Source of the DNA: Bacilli bacterium
GTDB lineage: Bacteria > Bacillota_I > Bacilli_A > RF39 > UBA660
Direction of reading: 5' to 3'
Assembly (NCBI GenBank): GCA_017477845.1
Contig: JAFUTR010000031.1
Location: forward strand, 15,738-79,737
DNA: 64,000 nt
Shown: positions 32,395-54,200 of the stretch, piece after piece
Position numbering within the stretch: position 1 is the first letter of the stretch
How the letters are laid out: every line of letters begins with the position of its first letter
The notes under the pieces: generated by a model
The model's database searches: none
What the model was told of the DNA's origin: nothing
The model's input: the letters and a program-made list of their open reading frames with translations, nothing else
Made by a program: the position numbers and the translations under genes

Positions 32395-32584
32395 GACCAT
32401 AATTTTTATATTTTTGGTGTGCAAAAAAGCAAGAGCATAAGAGATTGTCCCCTTAAATCACTCAATCCTAGATAAATACTAGGCTTTTCGTGGGGACAAA
32501 CTCATTTTGCACTTGCAAAATCAATCCACAAATATGGACGGCAAAATATATCAAACCATTAATTTACAAGGAAAAATTATGGTC
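32395..32584 (+). repeat. right copy of the roughly 190-bp structured repeat
   Basis: 13-bp closing inverted repeat GACCATAATTTTT (32395..32407) / AAAAATTATGGTC (32572..32584). It encloses AGCAAGAGCATAAGAG (32428..32443), a 60-nt hairpin-forming spacer and ATTTTGCACTTGCAAAAT (32504..32521). Confidence 0.8.
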
Positions 32585-32595
32585 TAAAGTATGGA

Positions 32596-34521: not shown

Positions 34522-34748
34522 AGTATCACTACCTTTCTAACAAAAAAGGGAGTCAAAAATACTAGTCTAAACTACTACTCTTGACTCCTTAATAACTAAA
34601 ATAATATATTTTTCTTTGCTTTTGACCATAGTTGTACCTCTCTTTCTAATAAAGACGGATACTGCTTGTCATTTATTGGCTTTATATTCTAGCACATTTT
34701 TGGGTTTTGTCAACATTGTAGTATAATATATACAAGGAGGTTTTTATA

Positions 34749-34934
34749 ATGAACATAAATTTAAATACTCATATTGATATTTCTGGAGTTATTGGTGTAG
34801 TCATTAGAAAAGTTCTTGAATTCAAAAAAGTAGATGGATTTACTGATGAAGAATTTAAAGAATTTTGGGAAAAACTTGAGAATGATGAAGAGTTTCTAAA
34901 TGCCTACAAAAATATTGTTAAAGTTGGTGACTAG
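34749..34934 (+). CDS. hypothetical small protein
   Basis: 61-aa ORF behind AAGGAGG. No motif recognised. Confidence 0.35.
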   Translation: MNINLNTHIDISGVIGVVIRKVLEFKKVDGFTDEEFKEFWEKLENDEEFLNAYKNIVKVGD

Positions 34935-34935
34935 T

Positions 34936-35217
34936 TCACGACTTTTTTATTGTTTTCAAGAAGTTTTCTAAATCTTTAAGTTCTATTGGATTATTGAGAT
35001 TAAAATGATAAACCTCTCTTCCAAAGTTAAAGAATAGAAAGACATGATTATTAACTATCATACGATGAGGTTCAACATAATTAAGATTAGTTCTTTTAAT
35101 ATTTATTAGATTACCTTGTATGTATTTTGGTTTAACATTAACATACTTACAAATAAAGTCTAATCTGTTTTTGATTCCTTCATCATAATCTAGCTTGTGC
35201 TTTTTAATTTGTAACAT
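34936..35217 (-). CDS. hypothetical protein
   Basis: Track ORF trimmed to its first ATG. No motif recognised. Confidence 0.3.
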   Translation of the reverse strand: MLQIKKHKLDYDEGIKNRLDFICKYVNVKPKYIQGNLINIKRTNLNYVEPHRMIVNNHVFLFFNFGREVYHFNLNNPIELKDLENFLKTIKKS

Positions 35218-35302
35218 ATAAAAAATCAACTACCTTTCTAGCAGTTGATTTTTCTATGTATTTAAAGCTCTAAACCCTAAAAGTTAGAGCAGTAAGTACT
35301 AC

Positions 35303-35376
35303 TGGCAGGGGATGAGAGAATCGAACTCCCAACAGTGGTTTTGGAGACCATTATTATACCATTTAACTAATCCCCT
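35303..35376 (-). tRNA. trnW: tRNA-Trp (anticodon CCA), CCA end encoded
   Basis: Manual cloverleaf: acceptor AGGGGAT/ATCCCCT, anticodon loop CUCCAAA, T arm GGGAG-TTCGATT-CTCTC, discriminator G, 3' CCA. Two hairpins follow at 35221..35290. Confidence 0.9.
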
Positions 35377-35529
35377 ACAAATTCAATTACACGAATTATT
35401 TTAACACTTAATGAAATATATTTCAAGATATTTCTAAATTTCATTGGAACATTTAATAATAAATTAATAGACTAAAAAATATAAAACAATAAATTTATAT
35501 AATTTGATTTTTGTTATAAAAAGAATTCG

Positions 35530-35566
35530 TTATATAAAAAAACAAATGCTTATGCATTTGTTTTAG
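35530..35566 (-). terminator. rho-independent terminator overlapping the stop of the amidase gene
   Basis: On the minus strand: AAACAAATGC-ATAA-GCATTTGTTT, followed by TTTTTATAT. Confidence 0.65.
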
Positions 35567-36686
35567 GAAGTAACAATATTTGATTTATTCTTAATAAATC
35601 ATTATTTAAGTTATTAAGTTCTCTTATTATATTTGGAGTAGTATTATATCTTCTTGCTATTGAGTATAATGTATCTCCTCTTTGCACTGTATATTCTATA
35701 TAATTGCTTAATGGTACTATTAATTGTTCTCCTATTTGTAATAACGAACTTTGTAAATTATTTAATCTTATTAATTCATTCACTGTAGTATTAAACATTC
35801 TAGCTATTGAGTATAATGTATCCCCTCTTTGTACTGTATAAACATTTTCATTATTTGGCTCATTGTTCCCATTTTGATTAGCGGCACATGACTCTGATAA
35901 CTTTATTACTTGCCCTGGATATATTATTGTAGAATCAAGTTTATTTAATTTAACTATATCATCTACTGTTACATTACAATTATTTGCAATTTTCCATAAA
36001 CTATCACCAGGTTTTATAGTATAATCTACTACTCCTATTATCTGTATACCATTAGTTGGAATTAGTAATTGCTGTCCTACTGTTAACCCAATTGAATTAA
36101 GCTTATTCAAAGTTAATATATCATCTACTGATACATTAAAGTTCTTTGCTATACTAAATAAAGTATCTCCATTTTTAACTGTATATATTGTATAATCATC
36201 TTGTAAGATATCTTCTTTAGTAGGAATAATTAATCTCTGTCCTATTACTAAATTATTAGTATTCAAGTTATTAGCTCTTTTTAATTCATCTACACTTATA
36301 CTATTGTTTCTCGCTATTTGATAAAGCGTATCTCCTCTTTTAACTGTATATATATTTTGATTATTATTTGTTCCTCCTGGTGCTATATAAGGTAGCCCAA
36401 TATAGTTAGTTACTGCCTTAACAACACCTTCAGCGTAATCTAATAAATTATTTTGAAGTTTTGCTAAATCTCTTGGATTATCAATAAATCCATATTCGAT
36501 TAATACTGCTTCAGTATTAGGGGTTTCTCTCATAATATAATAATAATCTTTACTTGGATTTTCAGGTAATCTTCTTTGATATATTTTTCTTTCTATCTGA
36601 CCTTTATTTCCTATTTCATCAAGTATCATACTTGCAAGAGTATCATCATTACGAAGTGAATAAACAACTTCCGCACCTTCACCACC
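35550..36686 (-). pseudogene. 3' part of a split N-acetylmuramoyl-L-alanine amidase (Amidase_3) / 5x LysM gene
   Basis: The open frame reads GG-EGAEVVYSLRNDDTLASMILDEIGNKG ... LIEYGFIDNP (the C-terminal half of an Amidase_3 domain), then five LysM repeats (YTVKRGDTLYQIAR ... etc.). There is no start codon or N-terminal catalytic half here; that half is at 53836..54109. Confidence 0.85.
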
Positions 36687-36730
36687 TCGCGATATAAGTT
36701 AATGTAACAAAATTCTTCCATAAGACAAAA

Positions 36731-36764
36731 AGAGCTTTGTGCCCAGTGGTCGCAAAGCTTTTTT
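36731..36764. terminator. bidirectional hairpin terminator just inside the left end of the element (after the helicase gene)
   Basis: AGCTTTG / CAAAGCT stem with T-runs on both strands. Confidence 0.55.
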
Positions 36765-38855
36765 TCATAATCTGCTTATAATATATTCTGAAAGAAAATT
36801 TAAATTCTCAAACTTATTATTCTTTAAAGCTTCATATATGTCATTAACATTATCCAATTCGTTCCCAATTACACTTACAATTTTATCTATATCATATTCA
36901 TATATTCCCAAATCTTTCAAAGTTTTTTTACATTTTGAATCTGAAAAGTATATATATTCTATACCTGCAATAATCTTCTGATTAATTATTTCTATAAGAT
37001 TATCAGCAATAGTATTACATTTCATAAAATAAATAATAATTTTGCACATATTATAAAATTCATGCTCGATATAGCTGCTTTTTAGTCTTAAAATCGTTGA
37101 TATTTCTCTATCTATATTTATTCTTTTATTATTTGACATCATTTCGTTTATTATAGTTTTAATATGCAATCTTCTTTTATCAATTAATTTATTTATTAAA
37201 AAAGAATTATGATTTATAATATAAGGATTTTCTTCTTCATAATTTATTATAGAATATATTAATTCTATTAAATATCCTCTCGATCTTTCCCTATTTTCAT
37301 ATAATTGCTGAAGTTCATAAAGTAACTTTGATTTGATGTTAATAAATTTTTCATACGTTTCTGATATTTTTTTAATCTTATACTTTGCCCCAATATTTTC
37401 TTTATATTCATCAGATGTAATATGTAATTTTCTAACGAACTCCTCATATTGACGACATTCAGCCTCATTTCCAACGTGGAAATCGAAGTCTTCACTTATA
37501 TCTGTTGCTTCAAATTTTATACTTTTTATTGCATCATCTTTTATGTATTTTGGATCGTCTGGTTCTTTTAAATAATATGCATATCCTAACTTATGCTGGT
37601 ATAGTCTCCCTGTTCTTCCAACTAAATTGTAAAAATCAAATGCATCAAATTTATTTTTAAATCTATATGGTTTCGTTATAATAATATTTTTGGCAGATAA
37701 ATTAACACCTTCTAGGATAGTTGACGTGCATAGAAGTGTATAAAATTCTTCCGATGAATCATACAAATCTAACTGATACATTCTAAATCCATTATTTAAT
37801 AACTGACCATTATGAATTAAAAATCCTCTTTCCATTGCTTTGACAACATACCATTCTTCATGGATTTCTTCTTTAACCCATTTAATGAAATTTAATATAT
37901 TTTTATCTTTTATTCTTATTAGTGGGTAATTTTTGACTATATTTTCGTTAACAAAAATTGGAATTTCTGCAACTGTTGGAAAATAAATTAGTGTTTTTTC
38001 ATGAATATGAGTATTAAGAAGCTCATTTATATATTTGTTTTTTTCTTTAGAATCATTTACATTTATCGTTTCTAGTTCGTTAACAACTGGAGAAAAATTT
38101 GTTCTAAACAAAATAGGTTTTTTATTCAATTTTTCTCTATCTTCAATATCTGAAATAAATGGAGCTAACAACACATACTTTTGTGATATTTGTGATAAAT
38201 AGTAGTATGCTAAATTTAGAATAAGAACCCTATTATTGTTATCATCTTTTTGTAATTTGTATACTTCATCTATTACCAAAAAATCTATTTTTTTTATTAA
38301 GTTATAATTACCATTCTCAACAACTTTATCATGTGTTAACACGAATAAATTATAATTATCAAAGTTAATTTTTGTTTCAAAATCAAAATTAATGTATTTT
38401 TTATATTTTTCAAAAATAAATTTGTATTTAGATATTATTTTTTTTAAATATTCATCTACCAATGCCAAAGTTGGGACAATAAGAACAACATTTTTTGGTA
38501 ATTCTCTTGAAATATATTCAAAGATACAAAATGTTTTTCCAAAACTTGTTGGAGCACTAACAATTAGTGCATTATTATTTTTTATATTACTTAATAATTC
38601 TAACTGTTCCGGATATAATGATATTTTTTTATCTAATGTAGATTTTGAAATAGAATTATATATAATTGAATCTAAATTTAAATTCTTAGAATAAATAGTT
38701 AATCCTAGGGAAAATAAATCATCAGAAATACTATATTTTTCTTCGTCAGATAAATTTTTATCTAAAAGCCTTATATATTCTTGTCTTAAATCATTTATAT
38801 CAATAACATCATTTATATTATATTTTTCACTGACATTCAGACTCATAAAAATCAC
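36765..38855 (-). CDS. hamB: SF2 DExD/H-type helicase, HamB-like (Hachiman)
   Basis: Walker A SAPTSFGKT, motif II VIDEVYKL, motif VI LVGRTGRL. It overlaps the stop of the preceding DUF1837-like gene. The Hachiman assignment rests on gene pair architecture. Confidence 0.6.
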   Translation of the reverse strand: MIFMSLNVSEKYNINDVIDINDLRQEYIRLLDKNLSDEEKYSISDDLFSLGLTIYSKNLNLDSIIYNSISKSTLDKKISLYPEQLELLSNIKNNNALIVSAPTSFGKTFCIFEYISRELPKNVVLIVPTLALVDEYLKKIISKYKFIFEKYKKYINFDFETKINFDNYNLFVLTHDKVVENGNYNLIKKIDFLVIDEVYKLQKDDNNNRVLILNLAYYYLSQISQKYVLLAPFISDIEDREKLNKKPILFRTNFSPVVNELETINVNDSKEKNKYINELLNTHIHEKTLIYFPTVAEIPIFVNENIVKNYPLIRIKDKNILNFIKWVKEEIHEEWYVVKAMERGFLIHNGQLLNNGFRMYQLDLYDSSEEFYTLLCTSTILEGVNLSAKNIIITKPYRFKNKFDAFDFYNLVGRTGRLYQHKLGYAYYLKEPDDPKYIKDDAIKSIKFEATDISEDFDFHVGNEAECRQYEEFVRKLHITSDEYKENIGAKYKIKKISETYEKFINIKSKLLYELQQLYENRERSRGYLIELIYSIINYEEENPYIINHNSFLINKLIDKRRLHIKTIINEMMSNNKRINIDREISTILRLKSSYIEHEFYNMCKIIIYFMKCNTIADNLIEIINQKIIAGIEYIYFSDSKCKKTLKDLGIYEYDIDKIVSVIGNELDNVNDIYEALKNNKFENLNFLSEYIISRL

Positions 38856-39750
38856 ACCTTTCTCTTAAAAAGCTTATAATTTTTGTTTGAAAGACATTTT
38901 TATCTATAATTGGAATGTTTATAATATAATATTTAACGTCTAAATCCAGTATTTTTTGTTTTTTTACTCTATCTAGTTTTTTGAATATTTGATTTACATC
39001 AATGTCATTACCACTCATTATAAAGATTGGAATGCCAATTTTTGTTGTTTTTGATATTTCTATAAACTTTTTAAAACTTAATGCTTTATTAATGTATTCT
39101 TTTATATCGTCAGGAAGGTTGGTTGGAAGTAGTTTTCTTGATAGTATAGTCCTAAATTCTTCGCAAATTTGATGTTCATAGTTATTTAATGACTTGTTTA
39201 TTAACTCAATTCCATCATCTAAGCTTTTACTTACTTTAGACTCTCCAAATAATAACATTCTTTCATTATAATCCCAGAAAATAACATCAATACCAAAAAC
39301 ACTCATATTTTTATTAGTAGTTAAAACTAATTTTGGTAATACGCATGTGAATTTGAAATAGTCAACTAAAACATTATGTAATATATATTCACCTACTTTT
39401 CCAATTTTATCACGTCTTAGTTTCAATAAATCCTTATCAGAATAATTTTCCCAGTCAATATAATTTGATAATTCTTTTTTTAAATCTGCTAAGTTTATCT
39501 CTAAGTTTTCATCGTCTATAAAATCAGTTAATGTTTTATATAAACTCACAAAATCTTCTGGAGTCGCATTAAAATCAACATTCACTTTATTATTTATGTA
39601 TCCTAAAATTTTTTCTTCTTTGAAGAAAAAACTAATTAATTCATCATAAAAACTATCTATATCTATTTTTATATGTACAAAAATATTTTTTTCTGTGTCA
39701 CTATAAACTATAAAGTCTTTATATTTTTCTTTTATCAATTTAATCACCAA
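38827..39750 (-). CDS. hamA: HamA-like (DUF1837-type) putative PD-(D/E)xK effector
   Basis: 307 aa lying directly upstream of and overlapping the helicase. Candidate nuclease motif GIDVIFWD ... LLFGESKVSK. Confidence 0.5.
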   Translation of the reverse strand: MVIKLIKEKYKDFIVYSDTEKNIFVHIKIDIDSFYDELISFFFKEEKILGYINNKVNVDFNATPEDFVSLYKTLTDFIDDENLEINLADLKKELSNYIDWENYSDKDLLKLRRDKIGKVGEYILHNVLVDYFKFTCVLPKLVLTTNKNMSVFGIDVIFWDYNERMLLFGESKVSKSLDDGIELINKSLNNYEHQICEEFRTILSRKLLPTNLPDDIKEYINKALSFKKFIEISKTTKIGIPIFIMSGNDIDVNQIFKKLDRVKKQKILDLDVKYYIINIPIIDKNVFQTKIISFLRERCDFYESECQ

Positions 39751-39843
39751 CTTATTTTATAAAACAAGTACATCTATGAGTACTTCATATCACTTCATCA
39801 CATTCCTACATCCTTCATATTTTGTTGTTTGTTTTACTAATTA

Positions 39844-40890
39844 TTACTTCCACTTATACTCAGTAAATCTTCCACCTGATATCTTTTCAATCTTTCCTTC
39901 ATTTAATAAAGTACTTAATGATCTTTCTATTGTAGTTTCACTTATATCAGGACATCTTTCCATTAAGTAAGCTTTATTAATTGGAGAAATACTTTCCATA
40001 AATAGAATACTAATTCGTTCAATAGCAGTCATCTTCTTATTTGTAATATACTCTACTCTTGAAGAAAACTCTTTATAAGCAGATAGAATAACACCAAGAT
40101 AATATTCTACAAAATAAGAATAATCATTTTCATTATTATGCCAGTTTACTGAACTATTTTCTAAAGAATCATAATACGTTTCTTTTGTTTCTTCTATTAT
40201 TTTTTCTATACTAATATATTTACCTACAATATATCCTGCTTTATATAATAGTAATAATGTTAATAATCTACTCATTCTACCATTTCCATCATTAAATGGA
40301 TGGATAGAAACAAAATCTAATATAAAAATAGGAATTGCAAGTAATGGATCTATTTCTCCTTTACTTATTATTTCATTATAACTATTGCATAGTTCTTCTA
40401 TTGCTATTGGAGTTTCAACTGGAGATAATGGTGTGAATCTTATTCTTTTTGTTCCATCTTCCAAAGTTTCCTCAATATAGTTTTGAGAGTTTTTAAATTT
40501 ACCACCATAACTGATTCCAGAATATTTATATAAATCTCTATGAAATTGTAAAATAACACTAGAACTAATATTAATATAATCATAGTTTTCATGTATTGTA
40601 TTTAATACATCTCTATATCCTGCTATTTCTTCTTCATTTCTATTTTTAGGTTCTACTTTATTATTTACAATTTCACTCATTCTTTGATCAGTAGTATATA
40701 TTCCTTCAATTTTATTTGAAGCACTCGTACTTTGAACTTTTGCAATAGATAATAAACTAGATAAAATATCTGGTTTTGCTTCAATATATAATTCTTGTTT
40801 TCCTTTATATTCATGAATACTAGATAATAAATTAACTACATTATTATTCATTAAAGATTCTAATTCTTTTACTAAATCAAATGTTCTCAT
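39844..40890 (-). CDS. Fic-family protein with a C-terminal winged-helix domain
   Basis: Fic motif HPFNDGNGRMSRLL. The C-terminal TIERSLSTLLNEGKIEK is wHTH-like. The start is ambiguous (ATGs at 40899 and 40890; the longer track ORF lacks an RBS). Confidence 0.85.
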   Translation of the reverse strand: MRTFDLVKELESLMNNNVVNLLSSIHEYKGKQELYIEAKPDILSSLLSIAKVQSTSASNKIEGIYTTDQRMSEIVNNKVEPKNRNEEEIAGYRDVLNTIHENYDYINISSSVILQFHRDLYKYSGISYGGKFKNSQNYIEETLEDGTKRIRFTPLSPVETPIAIEELCNSYNEIISKGEIDPLLAIPIFILDFVSIHPFNDGNGRMSRLLTLLLLYKAGYIVGKYISIEKIIEETKETYYDSLENSSVNWHNNENDYSYFVEYYLGVILSAYKEFSSRVEYITNKKMTAIERISILFMESISPINKAYLMERCPDISETTIERSLSTLLNEGKIEKISGGRFTEYKWK

Positions 40891-41371
40891 TTGCCTCATT
40901 TCTCCTTTCATTTGCACCATTATAGCACAAAATGATGCAATTAGCAATATATATGATGCAATTAAGGCTTAATATCATTTTGATAAATATATTGTCAGTT
41001 TGTTATTAAGCGCATTATTTTAACGTTTGGATATTTTAATCTATTTATGGTGAAGATTATACCATATTTTTGTTATATTCTTCGCTATTACTTATTTAAC
41101 ACTTGCTATACTTCTCGCACCTAAGACTATTTAAAATATTAATTGTATATATAATATAGGAAAAAATTATTATTTAGTTGCATCACTTGATAATGACAAT
41201 TCAAAAAGTAATATCTACTATTTTTATTTAAAAAAGGATTTACTGAAAAGACTAGTCAACCTCATAATAAGCAAATATAACTATAGTTGCTAAATATCTA
41301 GGATATGTTCATTAATATTAAAGCAAATCTATTTAACTTTGATTTAATTGAAATATTTAATTTAATTGACA

Positions 41372-41403
41372 AATTAAAATTAAAAATTAGGATTTCTCCT
41401 AAT
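41372..41403 (-). terminator. rho-independent terminator after the two-gene module
   Basis: AATTAGGA (41384..41391) / TCCTAATT (41396..41403), with a T-rich tail on the minus strand. Confidence 0.55.
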
Positions 41404-41408
41404 TATTT

Positions 41409-41750
41409 TTAATAATCATTAAAGTTTTCAGCTAAATACTCAGCCAACTGCCCCTCAGTCATATCTTCCATCATTTCTATTTCTTGTTCTATAATTGCAT
41501 GTTTTGGATTAGTGTGAAATATTTTATATTCATTATAATATTCCTCTAATTCTTTCTTTTCTAATCCTTTTATTCTATCAATTTCTTTTTCAAGTTCACT
41601 ATCTTTTATTTCTCTTTCATTTAAAAAAGACTTATGTTTTTCATTCCAATATTTCGCTTTAATGTTCTTTAAATTTGTATCACTAATTTCTGATATTTCT
41701 TTTTGATTCATATCAAAAGTATACTTTTCTAAATATTCTTCTAATGTCAT
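41409..41750 (-). CDS. hypothetical small acidic protein (partner of the RNxxxH protein)
   Basis: 113 aa from the ATG after AAGGTGA. Highly acidic and predicted helical. No motif recognised. Confidence 0.5.
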   Translation of the reverse strand: MTLEEYLEKYTFDMNQKEISEISDTNLKNIKAKYWNEKHKSFLNEREIKDSELEKEIDRIKGLEKKELEEYYNEYKIFHTNPKHAIIEQEIEMMEDMTEGQLAEYLAENFNDY

Positions 41751-41821
41751 CTTATCATCACCTTTCATTTAAAAAAATTTAACTCTATTATAACATATAA
41801 AAAGAATAATTATTTCTTTCA

Positions 41822-42553
41822 TTAATCTTCATTATCATCTATTAGAGAAACCTGGGTATACTTTCCCATTAATTCCATTGCTTGTTGTTCTGTATAATTA
41901 TCATCAGTTAACATTTTTATTAATTCATTATAATTTTCTTCTCCATATAATTCAATCATTTTATTCTTATTTTCCTCTAACTGAACATATTTTATGAATT
42001 TATTAGCTAAATCATCAAATTCTTCTTTTGTTGATTCATCATATTTAAAATTATTAAATATTGGCCTTAATTCATTTTTACTTTTTCTATCAAAATCTGT
42101 TTTTGATTTTGGATTATTAATTATATCTTTCATTAATTCAAAAATGGTTATCACCGGTTTAGAATTCATAATTACTTTATAATAATCACTACTTAAATAT
42201 GTCTTAAATATTACTTCTATTGTACTTTTAATTTCATTAATTAAAGTATGTATATCATTTTTATTTACTTTAGTTAATAATCTAATAAGATCATTTATAT
42301 ACTTATTATCTTCAATATGACCATATCTATTTCTCATTTTATATATCATTTCTTTAATACTGTGGTTATCTATTTTTTTATTTAAAATTTTATCTATAAC
42401 TACATAATTTTCAAAATATTTTTTTAATTTGTTGTAACCATCTATTATTTTTTGAATATTAAAATAGTCTTCTTCTGTATAATAACTCTTAATCTCTATT
42501 TTTTGTAATGTTTCAGACATATTGCATAATATCTTTATTTCTTCATTTGTCAT
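41822..42553 (-). CDS. hypothetical protein with an RNxxxH (HEPN-like) motif
   Basis: 243 aa, all-helical composition. KMRNRYGHIED fits the HEPN Rx4-6H signature. This assignment is inference only. Confidence 0.5.
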   Translation of the reverse strand: MTNEEIKILCNMSETLQKIEIKSYYTEEDYFNIQKIIDGYNKLKKYFENYVVIDKILNKKIDNHSIKEMIYKMRNRYGHIEDNKYINDLIRLLTKVNKNDIHTLINEIKSTIEVIFKTYLSSDYYKVIMNSKPVITIFELMKDIINNPKSKTDFDRKSKNELRPIFNNFKYDESTKEEFDDLANKFIKYVQLEENKNKMIELYGEENYNELIKMLTDDNYTEQQAMELMGKYTQVSLIDDNED

Positions 42554-43046
42554 AGGAACTCCTCAATTTGATATTATATCAAACTTAGAATAAATAAGCA
42601 CACAAAATATATAGGTTTTTGTTTTAAATTATTTGCTCTCCTCTGGGGGGCGATTTATAACATATGTTCGTATATATAAAACCGCATAAATTCAGCGAAT
42701 TTATGATACCAAAATCTAAAAAAGTATTAAGATTCTAACAAAATCTAGAAAAACTGTGACCTGGATGTGACCTGGAACCAGTTCCTTTATTTTGTCTTTA
42801 ACTATAATTATTATACCATAAAATAAGTAAAAGAGCACGATTAATACAATTATCTTTCGCACTCTTCTTTTTTTGACAATCCTGCGGATTTTCCCATCTT
42901 TTTCCGTATCTTTGTCAAAGAAAAAATTTTGGGAACATTTTTCCAAAACTATCCAGTTGTGTCAGTTATGACACTTTTTTCTATGATACCCTATCACACA
43001 TTAAAGTGACACAAGTGTCATGACCAATGAAAAAGCGATCTTTAGA

Positions 43047-44117
43047 TCACTCTTCATTAACAATATTAACATTATTTTTAAAATTAATTGCAATACTGTT
43101 TAAAGTATTTTTAATGTTTTCCCAAGTATCATTCATATCTAGTGTCTTTACATATAAATCATGACCTATCATTGGAAAATGAATATTAGCTGGTTTTTCA
43201 TCAATAGTTTGTGCATATAATAACATTCCTTTTACATTTCCACTTTTTTTTGGATCTTGACTATCTACATATACATATATTTGATTCAAATGATCATTTG
43301 ATATTATCTTAGTCTTTGAAAATGGATGATCATGGTATATTTTGTTGTAGAATTTAGCATCTATAATTAGCATACGATCTTCATATTCCATTGTAATATC
43401 AGTTTTGACAGATGGTATGTTCATTATAGGTTTATCACTTAAACAAAATCTACGAGAAGAAGCTTTTAATTCAGGATAATGTTTCCTATAATAAGATTTA
43501 ATAAAATTTTCATATATCGCACTTACTCTAGCATCATCTAAGTATTCTTTAAACTTATTTTTTCCAACTCTATCGCTAACTATTAATCCTTTCAAAATCA
43601 ATTTGCATAAATCTAAAACAAATTTATAAGAAATATTGTTTCTATTAAATCTTACTTGATCCCATTTAATTGTTTTAGTATCAATAATATCTACATTATT
43701 AAAATAGTATAATAGCTTTTTTAATTCATTTTTTGTTTCGGTCCCTATTTTTTTTGATTTCACTAAATAGAACATCGTTGTTTTTATTATTTGATTTAGC
43801 AAACAATTTTCACTATATTCATCGAAATTACAAATAATTTTTTTCTTCACTAAAGAATTCTTTTTAATAGTCTCATTTATATCTATTTTCCCTCTAATCG
43901 TGCCAATTTCTTCATTTGTATTGATGTATTCTCTATGAAGACCTTTTTTTATTTCCTTTTTCAAAATAAGACACAATAGCAAAGAAAATAGATTATATAT
44001 ATTATCAAATGCCTCATCACCTAAGTTAGCCTCATCCTTTTCATTAAGTTGCTCTCCATAAAATGAATAGCATAGCATGTAATAAATGTTTCTTACTTTA
44101 TTGTCTACGTTAATCAT
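43047..44117 (-). CDS. mcrC: McrC/LlaJI-R2-like PD-(D/E)xK nuclease subunit
   Basis: 356 aa, overlapping the McrB-like gene by 8 nt. Nuclease motif DITMEYEDRMLIIDAKFY. Confidence 0.75.
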   Translation of the reverse strand: MINVDNKVRNIYYMLCYSFYGEQLNEKDEANLGDEAFDNIYNLFSLLLCLILKKEIKKGLHREYINTNEEIGTIRGKIDINETIKKNSLVKKKIICNFDEYSENCLLNQIIKTTMFYLVKSKKIGTETKNELKKLLYYFNNVDIIDTKTIKWDQVRFNRNNISYKFVLDLCKLILKGLIVSDRVGKNKFKEYLDDARVSAIYENFIKSYYRKHYPELKASSRRFCLSDKPIMNIPSVKTDITMEYEDRMLIIDAKFYNKIYHDHPFSKTKIISNDHLNQIYVYVDSQDPKKSGNVKGMLLYAQTIDEKPANIHFPMIGHDLYVKTLDMNDTWENIKNTLNSIAINFKNNVNIVNEE

Positions 44118-46674: not shown

Positions 46675-46744
46675 AACATTTCACCTCTTAAGATATACTT
46701 CCATTTATAATTATATCATTATATGTTAAAAAAAAGAACCGTTA

Positions 46745-49054
46745 CTAACACGATTCTTCAAATACTCCAGTCTTAATTATCTCTTTAATTACTGCAAGCA
46801 TAACATCAACAACAATACTATTACCAGCTTGCTTATATGCCTGAGCACGTGAAACAACAATTTTATAATCATCAGGGAATCCCATCAATCTATGAGCTTC
46901 TCTTTCAGTCAGCATTCTAACTTCTCCTAAATCAGTCATGTAATTGTCAACACCTGCTCTATGTCTATTCCCCATAGTTGATAAAACTGTTCTTGCTATT
47001 TTCCTATCAATTTCAAGTGATGTTTTAAATGTTTTTGTTCCTGAACACATAACATATTTTTTTAACAATGGTGATAATATATATTTTTGGTCAACTACAC
47101 CAGGTTCATTAATTAATTCAATTTCCCCATTTTTTGATAAATAATTTCCCTCTTTTACTTTAGATAAAAGTAGATCTGGTAAATAAAACTTCAATTTTTT
47201 CTTTTTTGGAAATTCAAATTGTTTTTTTAATTTAATATCTTTTCTAAATCCAATCACAAACAGTCTTCTTCTAGTTTGTGGTATTCCATAATCTTCAGCA
47301 TTAAGAATATCTTGATGAATATCGTATCCTAGCTCGTCATATACTTCTTGCATAATTGCCCAAGTTTTTCCTTTATCATGAGTAGTTAATCCTCTTACAT
47401 TTTCATAAATGAAAACTTTAGGGTTTGTCTCTTTAATTATTCTTCCATATTCATAGAATAAAGTACCTCTTGTATCTTCAAGGCCTCCCTGAAACCCTAC
47501 TGTTGAAAAGCTTTGACAAGGGGATCCACCAACAAGTAAATCAACCTTATCTCTATAGTCAGTTCCATCTAATAGATTAATATCTAAGTGGAAATCATTT
47601 TCATTAATATCATAATTAGCCATGTAACTTTCTTTAACATAATTATGCTTTTTACTCTTCGATGAATATAAATTATCTACATATTTTTTCTTTTCTTGCT
47701 TTGTTTTCATTGAACGTATTTTTTTCATCTCTTTATCAGCGTCATATTCAATTTCAATATCTCCATTATCGCAAGCAAAAACCAACTTATAATTAACACC
47801 TAGTCTTTTCAATGCTTGTTCAGGTGATCCAATTCCACTGAACAAAGTTCCTACTCGTAAAATACCGTCGTTTTCAGTATTTACTTCATTTAATGGATTA
47901 TTTTCTCTTTTACTACTATCATGTAATGTTAACAATTTAGTTTCATTAGAAGAATCATCAAAAATATTTAATAGTTGAAGTTCTTTTAAAATTCTCTCAA
48001 ATATATTTACAACAATACTATTCCCTGCTTGTCTATACATTTGTACATCAGGAACTACTATATTAAAATCATCGCTAAATCCCATTAGTCTTAAACATTC
48101 TCTAGGAGTTAGTTTTCTAATCACGCCAGTCTTTCCATTCCATTTAGATAAATAAGCATGCTTCATTATTTCTTCATTGTGTCTTTTATTATCATATTCT
48201 TCAAAAACAAAATCTCCATTCCAATTAAATTGTTGATTTGCTTTTTCACACATAATAATATTTTCGTTTACTCTTGCTCTATTTCTATATTTTGGGTTAG
48301 TAACAAATTCAAACCCTTTTTGTCCTAAATAGTATTTTGGTTCAACTATATCCTCAAGATAATCAAACATAGTAGTTGTTAATTCCTCTTTTTCAGGAAA
48401 TTTGAAATCTCTTTCAAGAGTTATATCTTCCCTAATTCCAACAACAAATAATCTTGGTCTATTTTGAGGTATTCCATAATCTCTAGCATTTAATATAGGA
48501 TCATCGTTAATATAAATTCTATATTTTAATTCTTTAAATACATTTTGAATTGTTTCCCAAGTTTTTCCTTTATCATGATTTAATATTCCTCTAACATTTT
48601 CAAAAATAAAGACTTTAGGTTCACAATCTTTGATTAATCTAGCATATTCATAAAATAAAGTACCTCTTGTATCATTAAATCCCCCTCTTTTACCTATAAT
48701 TGAAAAGCTTTGACAAGGGGATCCACCAACAAGTAAATCTACTTTATTTTTATAATGCTCTCCATCTATAAATCTTATATCTTGGTGAAAATCTTTTTTA
48801 TCTATATCATAGTTAGCCACATATGACTCTTCCATGTAATTTGGTTTTCCTGTATTTGTATATAATTTATCTATAAATTCTTTTGATTCATCATAAGAGA
48901 GTTTTTTAATTTTTTCTTGAATTTCATCTTTAGATTCTTTTAATTCTCTTTCGCCGTTGTCACAAGCAAATACTAATTTATAGTCAATTTTTTGTTTTTT
49001 CATCGCTTCTTCTACAGCGCCAATTCCACTAAACACAGTAGCTAATCGAATCAT
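46745..49054 (-). CDS. fused tandem C5-cytosine DNA methyltransferase (two complete Dcm-type domains in one polypeptide)
   Basis: Every motif occurs twice: FSGIGA/FSGIGS (I), GGSPCQSFS x2 (IV), ENVRG x2 (VI), QNRPRLF/QTRRRLF (VIII), AGNSIVV x2 (X). The domain boundary is near 47.87-47.97 kb. Start set to the ATG at 49054, which follows AGGAGGT. Confidence 0.9.
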   Translation of the reverse strand: MIRLATVFSGIGAVEEAMKKQKIDYKLVFACDNGERELKESKDEIQEKIKKLSYDESKEFIDKLYTNTGKPNYMEESYVANYDIDKKDFHQDIRFIDGEHYKNKVDLLVGGSPCQSFSIIGKRGGFNDTRGTLFYEYARLIKDCEPKVFIFENVRGILNHDKGKTWETIQNVFKELKYRIYINDDPILNARDYGIPQNRPRLFVVGIREDITLERDFKFPEKEELTTTMFDYLEDIVEPKYYLGQKGFEFVTNPKYRNRARVNENIIMCEKANQQFNWNGDFVFEEYDNKRHNEEIMKHAYLSKWNGKTGVIRKLTPRECLRLMGFSDDFNIVVPDVQMYRQAGNSIVVNIFERILKELQLLNIFDDSSNETKLLTLHDSSKRENNPLNEVNTENDGILRVGTLFSGIGSPEQALKRLGVNYKLVFACDNGDIEIEYDADKEMKKIRSMKTKQEKKKYVDNLYSSKSKKHNYVKESYMANYDINENDFHLDINLLDGTDYRDKVDLLVGGSPCQSFSTVGFQGGLEDTRGTLFYEYGRIIKETNPKVFIYENVRGLTTHDKGKTWAIMQEVYDELGYDIHQDILNAEDYGIPQTRRRLFVIGFRKDIKLKKQFEFPKKKKLKFYLPDLLLSKVKEGNYLSKNGEIELINEPGVVDQKYILSPLLKKYVMCSGTKTFKTSLEIDRKIARTVLSTMGNRHRAGVDNYMTDLGEVRMLTEREAHRLMGFPDDYKIVVSRAQAYKQAGNSIVVDVMLAVIKEIIKTGVFEESC

Positions 49055-49149
49055 ACATATACCTCCTATCATTATCATATTACCATTTTAATCACATTTT
49101 GTCTGCATATATCTTAACAAAAAATTGTTATTTTGAACAGACCCAATCA

Positions 49150-49270
49150 TAAAAAATACCAAGAACAACTCTTGGTATAAGTTGCCTCATCATACTGAAA
49201 TTACCACCTAACTTAATAGGTTGGTGCAAGGTTATCGGGTCAGTCCCTATCTTGCTCTATATAAGGTCCT
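49150..49270 (-). promoter_or_regulatory. S-box (SAM-I-like) riboswitch leader with intrinsic terminator, upstream of the methyltransferase/McrBC-like operon
   Basis: The minus strand reads CCUUAUAUAGAGCAAGAUAGGGACUGACCCGAUAACCUUGCACCAACCUAUUAAGUUAGGUGGUAAUUUCAGUAUGAUGAGG. P1 is CCUUAU/AUGAGG and P2 is GCAAG/CUUGC. It is followed by the terminator AUACCAAGA-GUUG-UUCUUGGUAU-U6 (49151..49178). It deviates from the S-box consensus at several positions: UAGGGA for GAGGGA, GACCC for GGCCC, UAA for UGA. Confidence 0.6.
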
Positions 49271-49361
49271 CTTTATTCTTTACATGTATTTATATTGTAA
49301 CATACTTAAATGAAAAAGTCTGCATAAAAAACAATATATTAAAAATAATTCCTATTTTTCT

Positions 49362-49606
49362 ATCATAAATGCATCATATTTAGTATCTATATATCCCAAT
49401 AATGTATATATATTTTTTAATTTCTTTTTAACATCTTCTGGAACATTGTCTAAAGTATCAAGATACTTTGAAATATCATCCAAGTATCCCTTTGCATCCC
49501 TTGCATTTCTTCTCTTTTGTTCCACAGTAAAAGCAGCGTGTTCAATCTCTCTACGATAATCCTGGATAAGCTTGTCATATTTTTCATATGAAACAATAAA
49601 GTTTTG
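49362..49606 (-). pseudogene. start-less open frame; possible remnant of a coiled-coil accessory gene
   Basis: The frame reads ...YEKYDKLIQDYRREIEHAAFTVEQKRRNARDAKGYLDDISKYLDTLDNVPEDVKKKLKNIYTLLGYIDTKYDAFMIEK-stop. It is bounded upstream by TAA (49607..49609) and has no usable start. The two track ORFs here are in other frames and look non-coding. Confidence 0.3.
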
Positions 49607-49779
49607 TTAGCTAATGAAGGCATAACTTTTTCAGAGTATAGGACTTCCAAAGGAAGGACTTATCATTTTGAATATCATGAGCCTTCATTAGATGAAAATG
49701 ATTAACGTGGCACGTTTTGTTTCGGAGAAATGAAAGTGGCGATAGTGATTCATTTTCTTGTTTTATTAATTTGATAAAA

Positions 49780-49915
49780 ATTGATAAAACACTTGTTACA
49801 CAAGTGGAGGGAATAAATTCATTTTGTTCTTTCCTATCTTTGTAACAAGACATTGGGATTTTTAAGGGATTCCCTTAAACTCACGATGGGCTATGCCCTA
49901 GTGAGATAAGTCACT
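49780..49915 (+). promoter_or_regulatory. cluster of palindromes upstream of the relaxase gene; candidate oriT
   Basis: Four repeats: CACTTGT-TAC-ACAAGTG; CTTGTTACA ... TGTAACAAG; TTAAGGGA-T-TCCCTTAA (about 49868..49884); CTCACGATGGGC-TAT-GCCCTAGTGAG (about 49888..49913). Confidence 0.35.
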
Positions 49916-49957
49916 ATTTAAAACCTAGATGACTAACTGAAAGAAAGGAGTACATAT

Positions 49958-51388
49958 TTGAATATAGATTATCAAGTTTTAAAGTTTGAAAATAAAATAA
50001 AGCCTAAAGATATTGGTGGTCTTGGAGTCGAATTAGATGCTAGAAAATGATCTGGAAATTATGACAAAGAACGTACTCAATTTAATAAAGAATATGTTGG
50101 ACTTGATGGTCACTCTACTCTCAAAAGTAAAATATATTCAAAAATTTATGACAATAATATTCACTTTAATAAAGGTGAAAAAACAAATATATTGAATGGT
50201 TGTATAGTAACAAGTGGACCAGATTTTTTTAAAAAATTAGGTCTTCCTATGAAAGATTCAGGAAGAGTTTATGGAGAAAAATCAAAGCATCCAAGAGAAA
50301 AAATATATTGTCCTGATATTAAAAGTAAGGATGATATTCCATCAGAAGTATATAGATTTTTCGATGAAAGTTTTAATTTTTTATCTAACTTTGTTGGAAA
50401 AAAAAATGTAGTTTACGCTTCAATTCATATGGATGAAGATACTCCACATATGCACTTTTACTTTTTACCTATTGTTAATTCTATTCAAAGAAAAACATTT
50501 GAAACTGATGAAAATGGTAAAAGAATTATAAAAAAAAACACTAATAAAGATGGTATTGTAAAACAAAATCCTGTACTAAAAAGAAATGAAAAAGGAGACA
50601 TTATTTATACAACTGAGTACGGAAAATTCTTAAATACAGATGAATTTTGGAAACAAAAAGGTGGTAAATTATCTTTTGCTAAAATCCAAGATGAATACAA
50701 TGAATTTATAAAATCTAAAGGATTTGATCTTGATAGAGGCCACGTTGGAACTCATCGAGAACATCAATCTAAATTAGAATATACAATTAAAAACTTACAA
50801 GCTCAGGTCGAAAAGTTAAGTAAAGATGTAGAACTTTATGAAGAAATAAATAGCATTCAACTTGAGACTAATAAAGAAATAATAAACTTAAATACTGAAG
50901 AAGTATTATCCCCTACTAAAGATTTCTTTAACAAATATAAGAATGAAGATGTAGAAAAAATAAAACAATATGCTAAAGAGATCAATAAAGATAATGCTTC
51001 ATATAAATCAAAAATAAAATCTAAAGATGCTAAGATCAATCAACTTGAGTATGAAGTTCGTGAACTTAAAAATATGGATTTATATACTAAAAATTATGAA
51101 CAAATGACTGCTTTAGAAAGTAAAGATAAACAGATAAAAGAACTAACTGAAACAATTAAAAGTAAAGATAAAGAAATAGCATCACTAAAAGGTATTATTG
51201 AAAGAATCATTAAAAAAACATTCTATGTAATACAATATCTTGTTGGTAAAACAAAAGATAAAATAACTGATTTATTTAACTGGGATTCAAAAAATGACTT
51301 TCGAGCTTTTGAAAGTCAATTAGATAGAATGCTTAATAAATATGAAAATAAAAAGATATTACAAAAGACAAAAGCAAAGAATAAATGA
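49958..51388 (+). pseudogene. MobV (Mob_Pre) family relaxase gene with an in-frame TGA at codon 31
   Basis: The AAAGGAG-preceded TTG at 49958 opens a frame that meets TGA at 50048..50050, then continues in the same frame into track ORF 50192..51388. Relaxase motif ASIHMDEDTPHMHFYFLPIV (HxDE..PHxH), plus a long C-terminal coiled coil. Confidence 0.7.
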
Positions 51389-51398
51389 GGAGGTTAAT

Positions 51399-51512
51399 AT
51401 GAATAATATAGTAATTGAAAACATAAATTTAAGTATGGAAAAAGATAAGGATAAATTATTTAAAGAATTAATTATTAAGTACTTAGTTAAGCAAATTAGT
51501 GAGAGCAATTAA
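51399..51512 (+). CDS. hypothetical 37-aa protein
   Basis: Strong GAGGAGG RBS. MNNIVIENINLSMEKDKDKLFKELIIKYLVKQISESN, followed by the hairpin GTGAGAG/CTCTCAC. Confidence 0.4.
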   Translation: MNNIVIENINLSMEKDKDKLFKELIIKYLVKQISESN

Positions 51513-51598
51513 ACTCTCACATTTGCTTATTTTTTTTAAATCAAATATAATGTTACTGTCTTATGGGAGATGAGTAACAAAAACAAAGGAGATAATAA

Positions 51599-53254
51599 AT
51601 GAATTATAGTTACTTATCAAACTTGGATTATAATGCTGGTATTTATATCAGACTTTCACAAGAAGATAAAGATAAGAAATATGAATCTGATAGTGAAAGT
51701 GTATCCAATCAAAAAGAAATTTTAAGAAATTATTGTAAAAATAATGGATTCAATTTAATAGATGAATATGTTGATGATGGCTATTCTGGAACTAATTTTG
51801 ATAGACCTGGATTTATTCAAATGATTGAAGATATTAAAGCAAAAAAGATTAATTTAGTAATTGTTAAAGACTTATCTAGGCTTGGTCGTGATCATGTAAT
51901 GACTGGTTATTATATAGAATCATATTTTCCTGAAAATAATGTAAGATTTATATCTATCGTAGAAAACTATGACAGTGCAAAGGTTCAAGCTAGTAATGAC
52001 TCCTCTACTTTTATAATTGCTTGTAATGATTACTATAGTAAACAAAACTCTTTAAAAATTAGAAATGTTTTAGACTCAAAGAGAAAAGATGGAAAGTTTA
52101 TAGGTAGTAAACCAAGCTATGGTTATATGAGAGATCCAAATGATAAAGGACACCTTATACCTGACCCTGAAGTTAGTAAATACGTTAAATTAATATTTGA
52201 ATGGAGAGCTAATAATATTGGAGTTAGTGAAATAGCAACAAGACTAACTGAGATGGGTGCTCCTACTCCTGCATCATATAAAAATATGCCAAAATCTAGT
52301 AGAGTTATTGAAAAAGATAAATGGACTATTCACTCTGTTCATAACATCTTACAGAATAGAATGTACACTGGAGACATGGTTCAGCATACACAAACCAACA
52401 TAAGTTATAAATCGAAAAAGAAAGTTACTTTAAATGAAAACTTATGGGTAGTTGTTGAAAATACACATGAACCTCTTGTAGATAAAGATACATTTATGCT
52501 TATCAATAAAAAGACTAAAAATAAGAATAGAACTTATCAAAAAAGAGAAAGAAAAGAAAGATTGTTAGAAGGTTTACTCTACTGCAAAGAATGTGGTAAT
52601 AGACTTGGAGTTCTTTATAGAAAAAAACAAGACTATTGGTGTATTAATTGTAATAAATATACAAGAGATCCTGTAAGAAAATTATGCACATCTCACTTTT
52701 TTGCCTACGATTATTTTGAAGAAATAGTCTTAAAAGAAATTAAAAAATTACTATTAGAACTATTTAATGATTTAGACATAAATGAATTAAATAACGAGGT
52801 TTTAATTAGAACTAAAAATAATAGTAATGATTATAAAAAACAAAAAGAAGATATTATTAAAGAACAAAATAAAATACTAGATATGATTAAAACAATTTAT
52901 CAAGATAGATTGGATGGAAATATTACTCCTGAACAGTATAAGTTATTGTCTAAACCATATGATGAAAGATTAAAAGAGTTAAATTCTCAATTAGAAGATA
53001 TAAATATTGAAATAGAAAAAAGAAAGAATAATGCAGATAAACTTCCAAATTACATAAACAAAATAAAAAGGTTGTTAAACTTAGACAACCCAAATAAGGA
53101 ATTATTATTTGCATTAATTGAAAGAATTGAAGCAGATAAAGATAGAAACATCACTATTAAATTTAGATATGACCTACTTGATACTCATACTTTTAAATAT
53201 GAAGATAATAGAGTTCATAATCCTTACGGTAGAAAAGGAAAAGATATGATATAA
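51599..53254 (+). CDS. large serine recombinase of the 17-kb element
   Basis: AGIYIRLSQEDKD (catalytic Ser), VKDLSRLGRD, recombinase domain, zinc ribbon CKECGN ... CINCNK, and a C-terminal coiled coil. 551 aa, ending 580 bp from the right end of the element. Confidence 0.9.
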   Translation: MNYSYLSNLDYNAGIYIRLSQEDKDKKYESDSESVSNQKEILRNYCKNNGFNLIDEYVDDGYSGTNFDRPGFIQMIEDIKAKKINLVIVKDLSRLGRDHVMTGYYIESYFPENNVRFISIVENYDSAKVQASNDSSTFIIACNDYYSKQNSLKIRNVLDSKRKDGKFIGSKPSYGYMRDPNDKGHLIPDPEVSKYVKLIFEWRANNIGVSEIATRLTEMGAPTPASYKNMPKSSRVIEKDKWTIHSVHNILQNRMYTGDMVQHTQTNISYKSKKKVTLNENLWVVVENTHEPLVDKDTFMLINKKTKNKNRTYQKRERKERLLEGLLYCKECGNRLGVLYRKKQDYWCINCNKYTRDPVRKLCTSHFFAYDYFEEIVLKEIKKLLLELFNDLDINELNNEVLIRTKNNSNDYKKQKEDIIKEQNKILDMIKTIYQDRLDGNITPEQYKLLSKPYDERLKELNSQLEDINIEIEKRKNNADKLPNYINKIKRLLNLDNPNKELLFALIERIEADKDRNITIKFRYDLLDTHTFKYEDNRVHNPYGRKGKDMI

Positions 53255-53281
53255 TATTTGTAATTTAAGGAGGTCTGCTTT

Positions 53282-53797
53282 ATGGACTGCAATGAAATTA
53301 TTACAAATATTATTATGCCTATTGTTTCAGCATTAATTGGTGGTGGATTAACATTAATTGGTGTGTTAATAACTATAAAATCAGAAAACAAAAAAAGGAA
53401 AGAAGAAATTAGGATAGCTAACAAACCATTATTCTATGTTATAGATCCTCAACAAGATTATGATTATAAAAATGCTGTTGATTTTGCTTTTTATCAAAAT
53501 GATAGCAAAAAAAATGAAGGCTTTTTTACTCTTATTTTTAAGAATACAGATAAAGCTATATTAATATTAGATTATATTGAAATAAATGGAATAAAGTATT
53601 ATTCAAAATATGGTAATGTTGTAGACAAAAGTGTAGTATTTAACATTTATATTTATGCTGATAAAAATACTTTTAAAAAATCAAATAATGAAATAATTTT
53701 TAGTATAAAAGATTCATTAAATAATAACTATAAATACAATTTAGAGTATACTGATGAAAATGGTAAAATAATTAAAGGCTATTATGAGATTAAATAA
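53282..53797 (+). CDS. hypothetical membrane-anchored protein (last gene of the element)
   Basis: 171 aa behind AAGGAGG, with one N-terminal TM. Confidence 0.5.
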   Translation: MDCNEIITNIIMPIVSALIGGGLTLIGVLITIKSENKKRKEEIRIANKPLFYVIDPQQDYDYKNAVDFAFYQNDSKKNEGFFTLIFKNTDKAILILDYIEINGIKYYSKYGNVVDKSVVFNIYIYADKNTFKKSNNEIIFSIKDSLNNNYKYNLEYTDENGKIIKGYYEIK

Positions 53798-53815
53798 TTT
53801 TTTTAAATTTAACCC

Positions 53816-54109
53816 TTAATAATTACTTATATCGCCACCACCAGCGTTTATGTGATTTGATAAAATTATAACATCTTCATCATTTCCAAAAGAATTAAGC
53901 ATTCTTCTAAGTCTTTCATTTCTTCCTATATCTTCATCATCTGTTCTAGTTATTGCAACAGGTACACCTAATTCTCTTAATCTATTGTATATATAGTTAG
54001 CAGATTTTAAGTTAAAATCTTTTTCTCTTATATTACCATTTACTGCTCCAGGATCACTTCCACCATGTCCTGCATCAACAACTACTCTTTTAGTAGTATT
54101 TCCATTCAT
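53816..54109 (-). pseudogene. 5' part of the split Amidase_3 gene (authentic sequence 53836..54109; the last 6 codons and the stop are element DNA)
   Basis: MNGNTTKRVVVDAGHGGSDPGAVNGNIREKDFNL ... VIILSNHINAGG, then GDISNY-stop. Start set to the ATG at 54109 after AGGTGA. Confidence 0.85.
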
Positions 54110-54200
54110 TATAATCACCTATATTAATGTATGTAAAACTAATAATGATGTGAAAAAAAATAAACTCTAAAAAGTTAAAATCAATTTAGAGTTTATTATT

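Follow-up and report, generated by a model that had tools for sequence, protein, structure and literature searches.

A large serine recombinase island with defence cargo splits a predicted mother-cell amidase gene at a recurrent codon in gut Bacilli

What kind of element has divided an amidase gene on contig JAFUTR010000031.1 of a Bacilli bacterium (GTDB lineage Bacteria; Bacillota_I; Bacilli_A; RF39; UBA660; assembly GCA_017477845.1), and could it leave the gene again? The whole stretch analysed, called the window below, is 64,000 nt long (positions 15,738 to 79,737 of the forward strand), and positions are counted from its first letter. The two halves of a gene for an Amidase_3/LysM cell-wall hydrolase lie about 17 kb apart on the minus strand, and the DNA between them encodes a large serine recombinase (LSR). 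An initial annotation of the sequence had proposed a skin-like intervening element, which would be excised during sporulation to restore the gene. According to our analysis, the interval is most probably a 17,153-bp non-phage integrative island, which belongs to an LSR-driven clade and is parked in a predicted mother-cell lysin gene. This clade of LSR islands is large and previously undescribed, and the amidase is a new target gene; no description of an amidase-intervening element or of this LSR-island clade was found in the literature searched. The features that define the locus are as follows.

35550..36684, minus strand: 3′ part of the amidase gene, with the remaining catalytic domain and five LysM repeats (open reading frame, Pfam)
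36660..36711, minus strand: attR, made of the element left arm TTTGTTACATTAACTTATATCGCGA, the core GG and the chromosomal half
36687..53837, no strand: integrated element, between the two copies of the core GG, from the alignment of the closest empty-site relative (L001) to both flanks
51599..53254, plus strand: LSR of 551 aa, antisense to the amidase (Pfam; PHROG integrase match)
53811..53862, minus strand: attL, made of the chromosomal half, the core GG and the element right arm TGGCGATATAAGTAATTATTAAGG
53838..54109, minus strand: 5′ part of the amidase gene, codons 1-90 and the GG of codon 91 (Pfam match from residue 9)

The split of the gene was examined at both ends. The 5′ part (minus strand, 54109..53836) follows the ribosome-binding site (RBS) AGGTGA and encodes MNGNTTKRVVVDAGHGG...ILSNHINAGG; as it stands, the open reading frame (ORF) reads 6-7 element codons (GDISNY) past the junction and stops at 53816. 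The 3′ part on the same strand (36686..35550) encodes GEGAEVVYSLRNDD...IEYGFIDNP and then the five LysM repeats. The two junctions have the 7-mer GGTGGTG in common (CACCACC on the plus strand, 36680-36686 and 53836-53842). When the halves were joined in silico at this 7-mer, the check that the initial annotation had named, the profile search returned one contiguous, full-length Pfam Amidase_3 match over the junction (PF01520; residues 9-183, profile positions 1-174 of 174, E 1.8e-31), followed by five LysM domains. The two pieces are adjacent, non-overlapping halves of one catalytic domain, as had been claimed. Because the insertion lies inside the catalytic domain, neither fragment encodes a complete Amidase_3 domain. 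The 7-mer join itself was rejected. It gives HINAGG-EGAE, with two glycines in a protein of 467 aa, and is one codon short, since three glycines were found in 24/24 intact orthologues examined (HINAGGGEGAE, HINAGGGEGAEVVY) and the attachment sites of relatives share only GG. The corrected join, 54109..53838 with 36684..35550, gives 468 aa and aligns at 95% identity and without gaps to the intact 468-aa orthologue P0247. In silico, precise excision would give back an intact ORF.

The GGTGGTGG repeat leaves the register of the join ambiguous in the window alone, and relatives were compared. In L006, attL reads GCA GGG GGC TCC and attR reads GCA GGT GGA GAT; in L002, attL reads GGT GGT GTG and attR reads ACA GGA GGA GAA. 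Because attL and attR of the relatives, set in the three-Gly register, share only the GG of the second Gly codon, these two bases are the core (53839-53838 at attL, 36686-36685 at attR). Serine recombinases leave a core of this length, 2 bp. The element measures 17,153 bp counting one core, with 17,151 bp between the two GG cores. In the closest empty-site relative, L001, the DNA is 85-92% identical, and both flanks align with an 8-nt overlap at the core. Empty sites, the presence of which in relatives had also been named as a check, were found in L001, P0001, P0247 and about 35 species-representative genomes. The predicted repaired attB is TATCAAATCACATAAACGCTGGTGGTGGTGAAGGTGCGGAAGTT, and the predicted attP is TTTGTTACATTAACTTATATCGCGA-GG-TGGCGATATAAGTAATTATTAAGGG (full string TTACATTAACTTATATCGCGAGGTGGCGATATAAGTAATTATT). 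The predicted circular junction, ACTTATATCGCGA-GG-TGGCGATATAAGT, is 3 bp shorter than that proposed earlier. The attP arms are inverted repeats matching at 16/25 positions, and at 12/13 beside the core. The sites therefore have the LSR-type organization, with imperfect inverted arms around a non-palindromic 2-bp crossover that recurs at attL and attR.

The recombinase that had been read between the halves was confirmed, its gene lying 581 bp from the element end. Resolvase (PF00239), Recombinase (PF07508) and Zn_ribbon_recom (PF13408) domains were all detected above cutoff, which identifies it as an LSR, and its N-terminal YIRLSQED is the stretch that would hold the putative catalytic serine. 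It is 64% identical to the LSR of L002.

Does the same split occur elsewhere? A search with the repaired amidase returned many intact orthologues and a set of ~360-aa proteins, which start at the same internal Met as the 3′ ORF of the window. In L002 (a 133-kb contig whose amidase is 71% identical), the gene is split at the same place by a 9.5-kb element with wholly different cargo, namely a ubiquitin-like Bub module and a DpnII restriction-modification (R-M) system. Eighty metagenomic loci were then fetched via the LSR (59-88% identity to the window LSR). An Amidase_3 fragment lies just beyond the LSR in 72 of the 80, and every junction falls at the same codon. The same-codon split is found in >90 independent loci, a pattern that is for this reason far beyond chance. 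LSRs that are at least 80% identical to that of the window, and form its class, point towards the 5′ fragment, antisense to the amidase, and those that are 59-73% identical point towards the 3′ fragment in sense orientation. One attB is common to at least three attP arm types; the DNA sequence of this attB is conserved because it codes for SNHINAGGGEGAEV(V/I)Y. Occupancy was estimated from one-genome-per-species data with the amidase as query. Among 63 species-representative genomes, the gene is split in ~28 and intact in ~35, so that ~45% are occupied; part of these split genes come with more distant LSRs (47-52% identity). The census genomes are all metagenome-assembled genomes (MAGs) of uncultured gut 'Bacilli' from rabbit, Hadza and other human, mouse, rumen and chicken samples, some of them labelled Erysipelotrichaceae, Tenericutes or Candidatus (Allo)scybalousia.

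Gene content was compared among 27 complete elements of 7-17 kb. Only the LSR is universal; the cargo is variable and often comprises methylases and restriction enzymes. Many relatives have a small replication-initiator-like helix-turn-helix (HTH) protein and a 143-aa protein beside the LSR, and most are without any relaxase. LSR identity and host amidase identity, compared pairwise, were uncorrelated (Spearman 0.04), and LSRs 97-100% identical were found in amidases merely 44-47% identical. On this value, a skin-like vertical co-divergence of element and host was rejected. Since the two similarities are uncorrelated, these are actively transferring elements and not old residents co-diverging with their hosts. 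No close LSR was found in sequenced phages or plasmids, where the best matches are 31-34% identical and some are annotated TndX.

Some loci of the clade deserve separate mention. At L009 (9418-9465) and L043 (attL of class B1, attR of class A), hybrid junctions were observed in which the left arm of one attP class is joined via GG to the right arm of another. These junctions indicate a tandem of two different islands inside a single amidase gene. Seven loci (L057, L060, L061, L066, L068, L051 and L073) have 3′ amidase fragments that are each 64.6% identical to that of the window and, judged by this equal similarity only, may come from one species. Among those of the seven in which both ends are visible, the islands vary in size (9.8-12.9 kb), cargo and attL arm, and their LSR end is common. 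If the loci do represent one species, the difference points to rapid cargo exchange within it. Moreover, a long conserved hairpin (GGGATAAATTTTGCAAGTGCAAAATAAGTTTGGTACC ... GGTACCATCGTCTTATCC) and a terminator-like stem are present ~160 nt upstream of the HTH_36 gene in L025, L028, L030, L032, L044, L048 and L141. This hairpin precedes the replication-like module of class B and could be an origin, an origin of transfer (oriT) or a regulatory RNA.

The cargo genes of the window element are as follows.

36765..38855, minus strand: HamB helicase of a Hachiman pair (Pfam DEAD/ResIII; PADLOC HamB1, E 1.5e-92)
38827..39750, minus strand: HamA of the Hachiman pair (Pfam HamA; PADLOC HamA1, E 5.5e-12)
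39844..40947, minus strand: Fic-domain protein, SoFic-type defence candidate (Pfam Fic; PADLOC SoFic, E 1.9e-41)
41409..42553, minus strand: two ORFs of 243 aa and 119 aa, with no significant family match
43047..44117, minus strand: McrC-like protein (Pfam, PADLOC)
44110..46674, minus strand: McrB-like AAA_5 GTPase (Pfam, PADLOC)
46745..49078, minus strand: fused double C5-cytosine DNA methyltransferase (Pfam DNA_methylase in two stretches; PADLOC MTase_II)

HamA (DUF1837) and HamB are adjacent and overlap at 38827-38855, as is characteristic of Hachiman. The McrB-like and McrC-like proteins and the methylases together make up a LlaJI-like restriction module. The defence cargo listed in the initial annotation was thus recovered by Pfam and PADLOC in most of its parts (Hachiman, SoFic and the McrBC-like system with a double m5C methylase), the exception being a 'HEPN-like module' that is without a family match; the two ORFs at 41409..42553 had no match in Pfam, PADLOC or PHROGs.

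The following features lie on the plus strand, beside the LSR.

49780..49915, plus strand: inverted-repeat cluster upstream of mob, a candidate oriT
50192..51388, plus strand: Mob_Pre (MobV-type) relaxase ORF, of which only the motif-III/central region matches the profile
51399..51512, plus strand: conserved micro-ORF of 37 aa (MNNIVIENINLSMEKDKDKLFKELIIKYLVKQISESN) with a strong RBS, and a hairpin terminator at 51499-51520 after it
51523..51578, plus strand: LSR promoter region, with a sigma-A-like TTGCTT-17-TATAAT (51523-51551) and then a conserved inverted-repeat box, GTTACTGTCTTATGGGAGATGAGTAAC
53282..53797, plus strand: predicted membrane protein of 171 aa downstream of the LSR, found in a few class B elements too (cluster c10), with no Pfam, PADLOC or PHROG match

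The same layout was found 5′ of every LSR in the clade: a micro-ORF of ~25-37 aa, a hairpin terminator, a sigma-A-type promoter and an inverted-repeat box with TGTCT. The arms of the box differ by class (GTTACTGTCTTATGGGAGATAAGTAAC in A, GCACTTGTCTCGAAGAAAGTTAAGTGC in B1 and GTCTTAATACCCAATTAAGTAAGA in B2). Its other strand, TAAGACAG, fits WWRRACAR, the SpoIIID consensus; this is a lead and not a test. RNAalifold gave no consensus fold for the LSR 5′ leader, in which the conserved inverted repeats lie. The micro-ORF is called as a gene in L084 and had no family match in NCBIfam and PHROG searches. Its translation is coupled to that of the mob gene in the window and to that of replication-like genes in relatives, and its product is a candidate recombination directionality factor (RDF). 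The sequence CATAAATTTA, conserved near the micro-ORF, was considered as a promoter and rejected; it encodes a conserved peptide segment, INL. At class B2 loci (L045-L083 type), ~200 nt upstream of the LSR, the micro-ORF appears as two short overlapping frames, MYEKNSKIINKNINLNRWFNYGRSLFE and MEGAYLNNISFKDLILKYLIEEISKEEG..., which together are equivalent to the single 37-aa ORF of A and B1 and could be a frameshifted gene or two peptides.

The relaxase gene of the window appears damaged. A longer mob frame from 49958, with a TTG start and a good RBS, is broken by an in-frame TGA at 50048-50050 (codon 31), and the ORF from 50192 is without the N-terminal relaxase motif. Extension of the Mob_Pre ORF upstream through the TGA was tried, and the Pfam match was not lengthened. 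The gene may be a truncated or damaged pseudogene, or a case of recoding. As features of an integrative and mobilizable element, the window element has its own integrase and att sites, together with this partial Mob_Pre match and the longer frame with a TGA; no type IV secretion system genes were found in it.

What is the function of the gene that these islands occupy? Because the Pfam catalytic domain begins at residue 9, the amidase has no signal peptide. The space between the upstream terminator and the amidase RBS is ~45 nt, and it holds a candidate promoter.

54125..54151, minus strand: candidate sigma-K-type promoter of the amidase (AC, 16 nt, CATACATTA), between the upstream terminator and the RBS

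The Bacillus sigma-K consensus is AC-16/17-CATAnnnTA, and neither the C of CATA nor the final A is a feature of sigma-A promoters. We compared 69 unique upstream regions of orthologues, whose amidases are 47-95% identical and whose intergenic DNA is otherwise diverged. CATAnnnTA was present at -45..-18 from the start codon in 61/69, versus 1.3 expected from the background frequency of the window, and AC was found at 16-17 nt spacing upstream of the box in 42/69. Moreover, the window contains a gene for a small acid-soluble spore protein (SASP; Pfam), and in the relative L110 the gene directly downstream of the amidase is SpoIIGA; such sporulation genes agree with the earlier statement that the organism sporulates. 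The box and the lack of a signal peptide likewise support, as a prediction, the earlier guess of a mother-cell gene, and the target amidase is probably expressed in the mother cell.

The mechanism is that of a standard LSR integrative element. The LSR would recombine the imperfectly palindromic attP with an attB of ~45 bp, the coding sequence of the catalytic motif SNHINAG-G-GEGAEVVY of the LysM amidase, and would cut at the GG of the second Gly codon. As the DNA of this motif is conserved in amidases that are otherwise ~45% identical, the site is available in many species and the elements can spread. The spread of the window copy may have relied on the MobV relaxase and oriT, the gene of the former now looking damaged. 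The target is most likely a CwlC-like late mother-cell lysin that would be dispensable in growing cells, and hence a cheap landing site. Excision by the LSR would restore the gene exactly, and it would probably need the product of the 37-aa micro-ORF as directionality factor.

Is the island also removed during development? The LSR and a sporulation-controlled RDF might excise it in the late mother cell and rebuild the lysin, with the forespore keeping the island. Such a skin-like scheme is compatible with the integrative island described above and refines it, and we hold it as a tentative possibility. The conserved sigma-K/E-type box of the target, its lack of a signal peptide and the sporulation genes of the hosts are consistent with it, and the ~45% occupancy suggests a low cost. 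In addition, the 3′ halves of the split genes are open over at least 224 codons in 87/90 loci, a distribution that is the same as in intact genes. For the LSR elements that have been examined in sigK, spsM, spoVFB and gerE, all mother-cell genes, excision was reported to take place during sporulation (PMC4191935, PMC5595907), and excision of the yin element in yabG was growth-phase-dependent (PMC10747680). On the other hand, a consensus search, which could miss divergent promoters, found no CATAnnnTA-type (sigma-E/K) box in front of the LSR, the micro-ORF or the genes that precede them, HTH and single-strand-binding (SSB)-like genes included, in the window and ~80 relatives. The LSR promoter is of sigma-A type, and the coupling of the micro-ORF to mob or replication-like genes is what excision for transfer would lead one to expect. 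As transfer is rampant and recent, the intact halves may only reflect young insertions. Moreover, in L089 (2417-11380), and in L125 (9992-11034) with L087 (476-1891), an intact amidase gene is preceded by one or two orphan 5′ amidase fragments. The L089 fragment matches the intact gene over the first ~70 N-terminal residues displayed, and a 7.3-kb island that lacks an LSR lies between the two. The gene has apparently been restored in these cases by a duplicated or element-borne 5′ half, a rescue that would be needless if excision always rescued it. The developmental excision proposed in the initial annotation was left without direct support.

A different outcome would be an island fixed in a dispensable amidase, with the gene permanently off and excision ended in this strain. 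The TGA in the relaxase frame is in line with this, as are the same integrated context on all six contigs that carry the window LSR and an exact look-up in a 15-billion-protein collection, which was negative for the reconstituted protein and found the split 3′ ORF on 4 contigs. However, the LSR ORF, with its three domains, and the two att sites, with arms that match the family consensus, are intact; no damage is seen in either half of the amidase, at 95% identity to intact orthologues, and the micro-ORF and promoter architecture are conserved. Together these features make a dead insertion unlikely. More improbable still, indeed very much so, is a degraded prophage or a helper-packaged phage satellite of the type of the phage-inducible chromosomal islands (PICI). 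Relatives do carry a DnaD/replication-initiator-like HTH (PHROG) and an OB-fold-like small protein beside the LSR, and related LSRs occur on two IMG/VR contigs. Nevertheless, no capsid, terminase, portal, tail, packaging or lysis genes were found by Pfam and PHROGs in the window element or in the 27 complete relatives, and a prophage was rejected on this ground; the nearest phage LSRs are <33% identical, and the window element has a Mob_Pre gene in place of the replication-like module. The integrative island in a mother-cell lysin gene, which we prefer, has several points to its disadvantage as well. A search of IMG/VR with a degenerate attP pattern found no excised circle; as neither a circle nor an empty site of the same strain was found in the collections searched, any activity of this copy is putative. 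The partial Mob_Pre match and the in-frame TGA indicate that the copy may not be mobilisable, and the micro-ORF is assigned as RDF by position and conservation only. For the target, a weaker sigma-A reading of the same region is possible (TTCACA-17-TACATT), and NCBIfam provided no equivalog for the amidase, the CwlD model scoring well under cutoff and no characterised orthologue being returned.

Among known gene-intervening elements, the island is closest to gin in gerE of Bacillus cereus ATCC10987 (GirC/GirX). Both are non-phage elements with R-M cargo and serine recombinase(s) that split a mother-cell gene (a predicted one here), and both have short flanking repeats and a precise excision that restores the ORF, in silico in our case (PMC5595907). 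In contrast to the island, gin has three recombinases, a proven sporulation-specific excision and an identified RDF, whereas here we find one LSR, another target gene and a broad host range with ~45% occupancy. The skin elements (SpoIVCA in B. subtilis; CD1231/CD1234 in C. difficile) and SPbeta (SprA/SprB, spsM) also have an LSR near one element end and lie in a mother-cell gene, the target here being a predicted one. Timing in SPbeta and skinCd comes from a small RDF, the recombinase being constitutive (PMC4191935, PMC5025042, PMC5499854), and the sigma-A-type LSR promoter with a separate micro-ORF parallels this scheme. They differ in being prophage-derived and in having RDFs with sigma-E/K promoters, none of which were found here, and their targets are a regulator or a spore-envelope gene rather than a lytic enzyme.

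Tn4451/Tn4453 and Tn5397 (TnpX/TndX; TnpZ Mob/Pre) resemble the window element in combining a Firmicute LSR with a Mob_Pre-type relaxase, and their excision yields circles with a 2-bp core. The best annotated matches to the window LSR include TndX, at ~31-33% identity. These transposons carry antibiotic-resistance genes and insert at several sites, whereas the present clade is specific for a single codon of one gene and has defence cargo. SCCmec (Ccr at rlmH/orfX) is another case of LSR-borne islands at one conserved site with mosaic cargo and tandem arrays, comparable to L009 and L043. An SCC insertion lies at the 3′ end of the target gene, which stays functional; the insertion described here splits the catalytic domain. 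As for the target itself, CwlC of Bacillus subtilis likewise has an N-terminal Amidase_3 domain, no signal peptide and C-terminal wall-binding repeats. The CwlC binding domain is SPOR-like, versus five LysM repeats here, and no evidence of orthology was obtained. The cwlC gene encodes a late, sigma-K/GerE-dependent mother-cell lysin (PMC517825). The promoter-type box of the target matches this class, its expression being a prediction only.

Two neighbouring loci in the window were also noted. Just downstream of the amidase, by tRNA-Trp (35303..35376), a second, unrelated LSR of 641 aa with Resolvase, Recombinase and Zn ribbon domains is encoded at 32596..34521 on the minus strand. A NERD/HRDC protein and two HTH_3 proteins accompany it, and the region 28100..35400 appears to be another small island, directly adjacent to the first locus. 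On the other side, a SIR2-family deacylase gene (56534..57259, minus strand) encodes 143 aa, the N-terminal half, versus 241 aa in the 85%-identical relative L001, and is probably a frameshifted or truncated pseudogene.

Excisable elements are known in the sporulation genes sigK, spsM, spoVFB, spoVR, gerE and yabG, mostly of cultured Bacillus and Clostridium. Our results add a lytic amidase to these targets and identify the site as a major integration hotspot in uncultured gut Bacilli, with swappable defence cargo. They also define an attB/attP pair with a GG crossover for many natural LSR variants, in which one attB is combined with at least three attP types; this set should be useful for studying the evolution of site recognition and may possibly yield orthogonal integration tools. 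If excision is not developmental, a sporulation gene can be a low-cost parking place for mobile elements. If it is developmental, the carriage of an anti-phage island would be linked to spore release. In the fullest form of this idea, which we consider rather doubtful, a mobile defence-island clade has a codon of the lysin catalytic motif as its dedicated home, and excision in the mother cell with the micro-ORF product as RDF rebuilds the lysin. If true, spore release in about half of the species would depend on the recombinase of a mobile element, and the upkeep of the island in the germ line would be nearly free.

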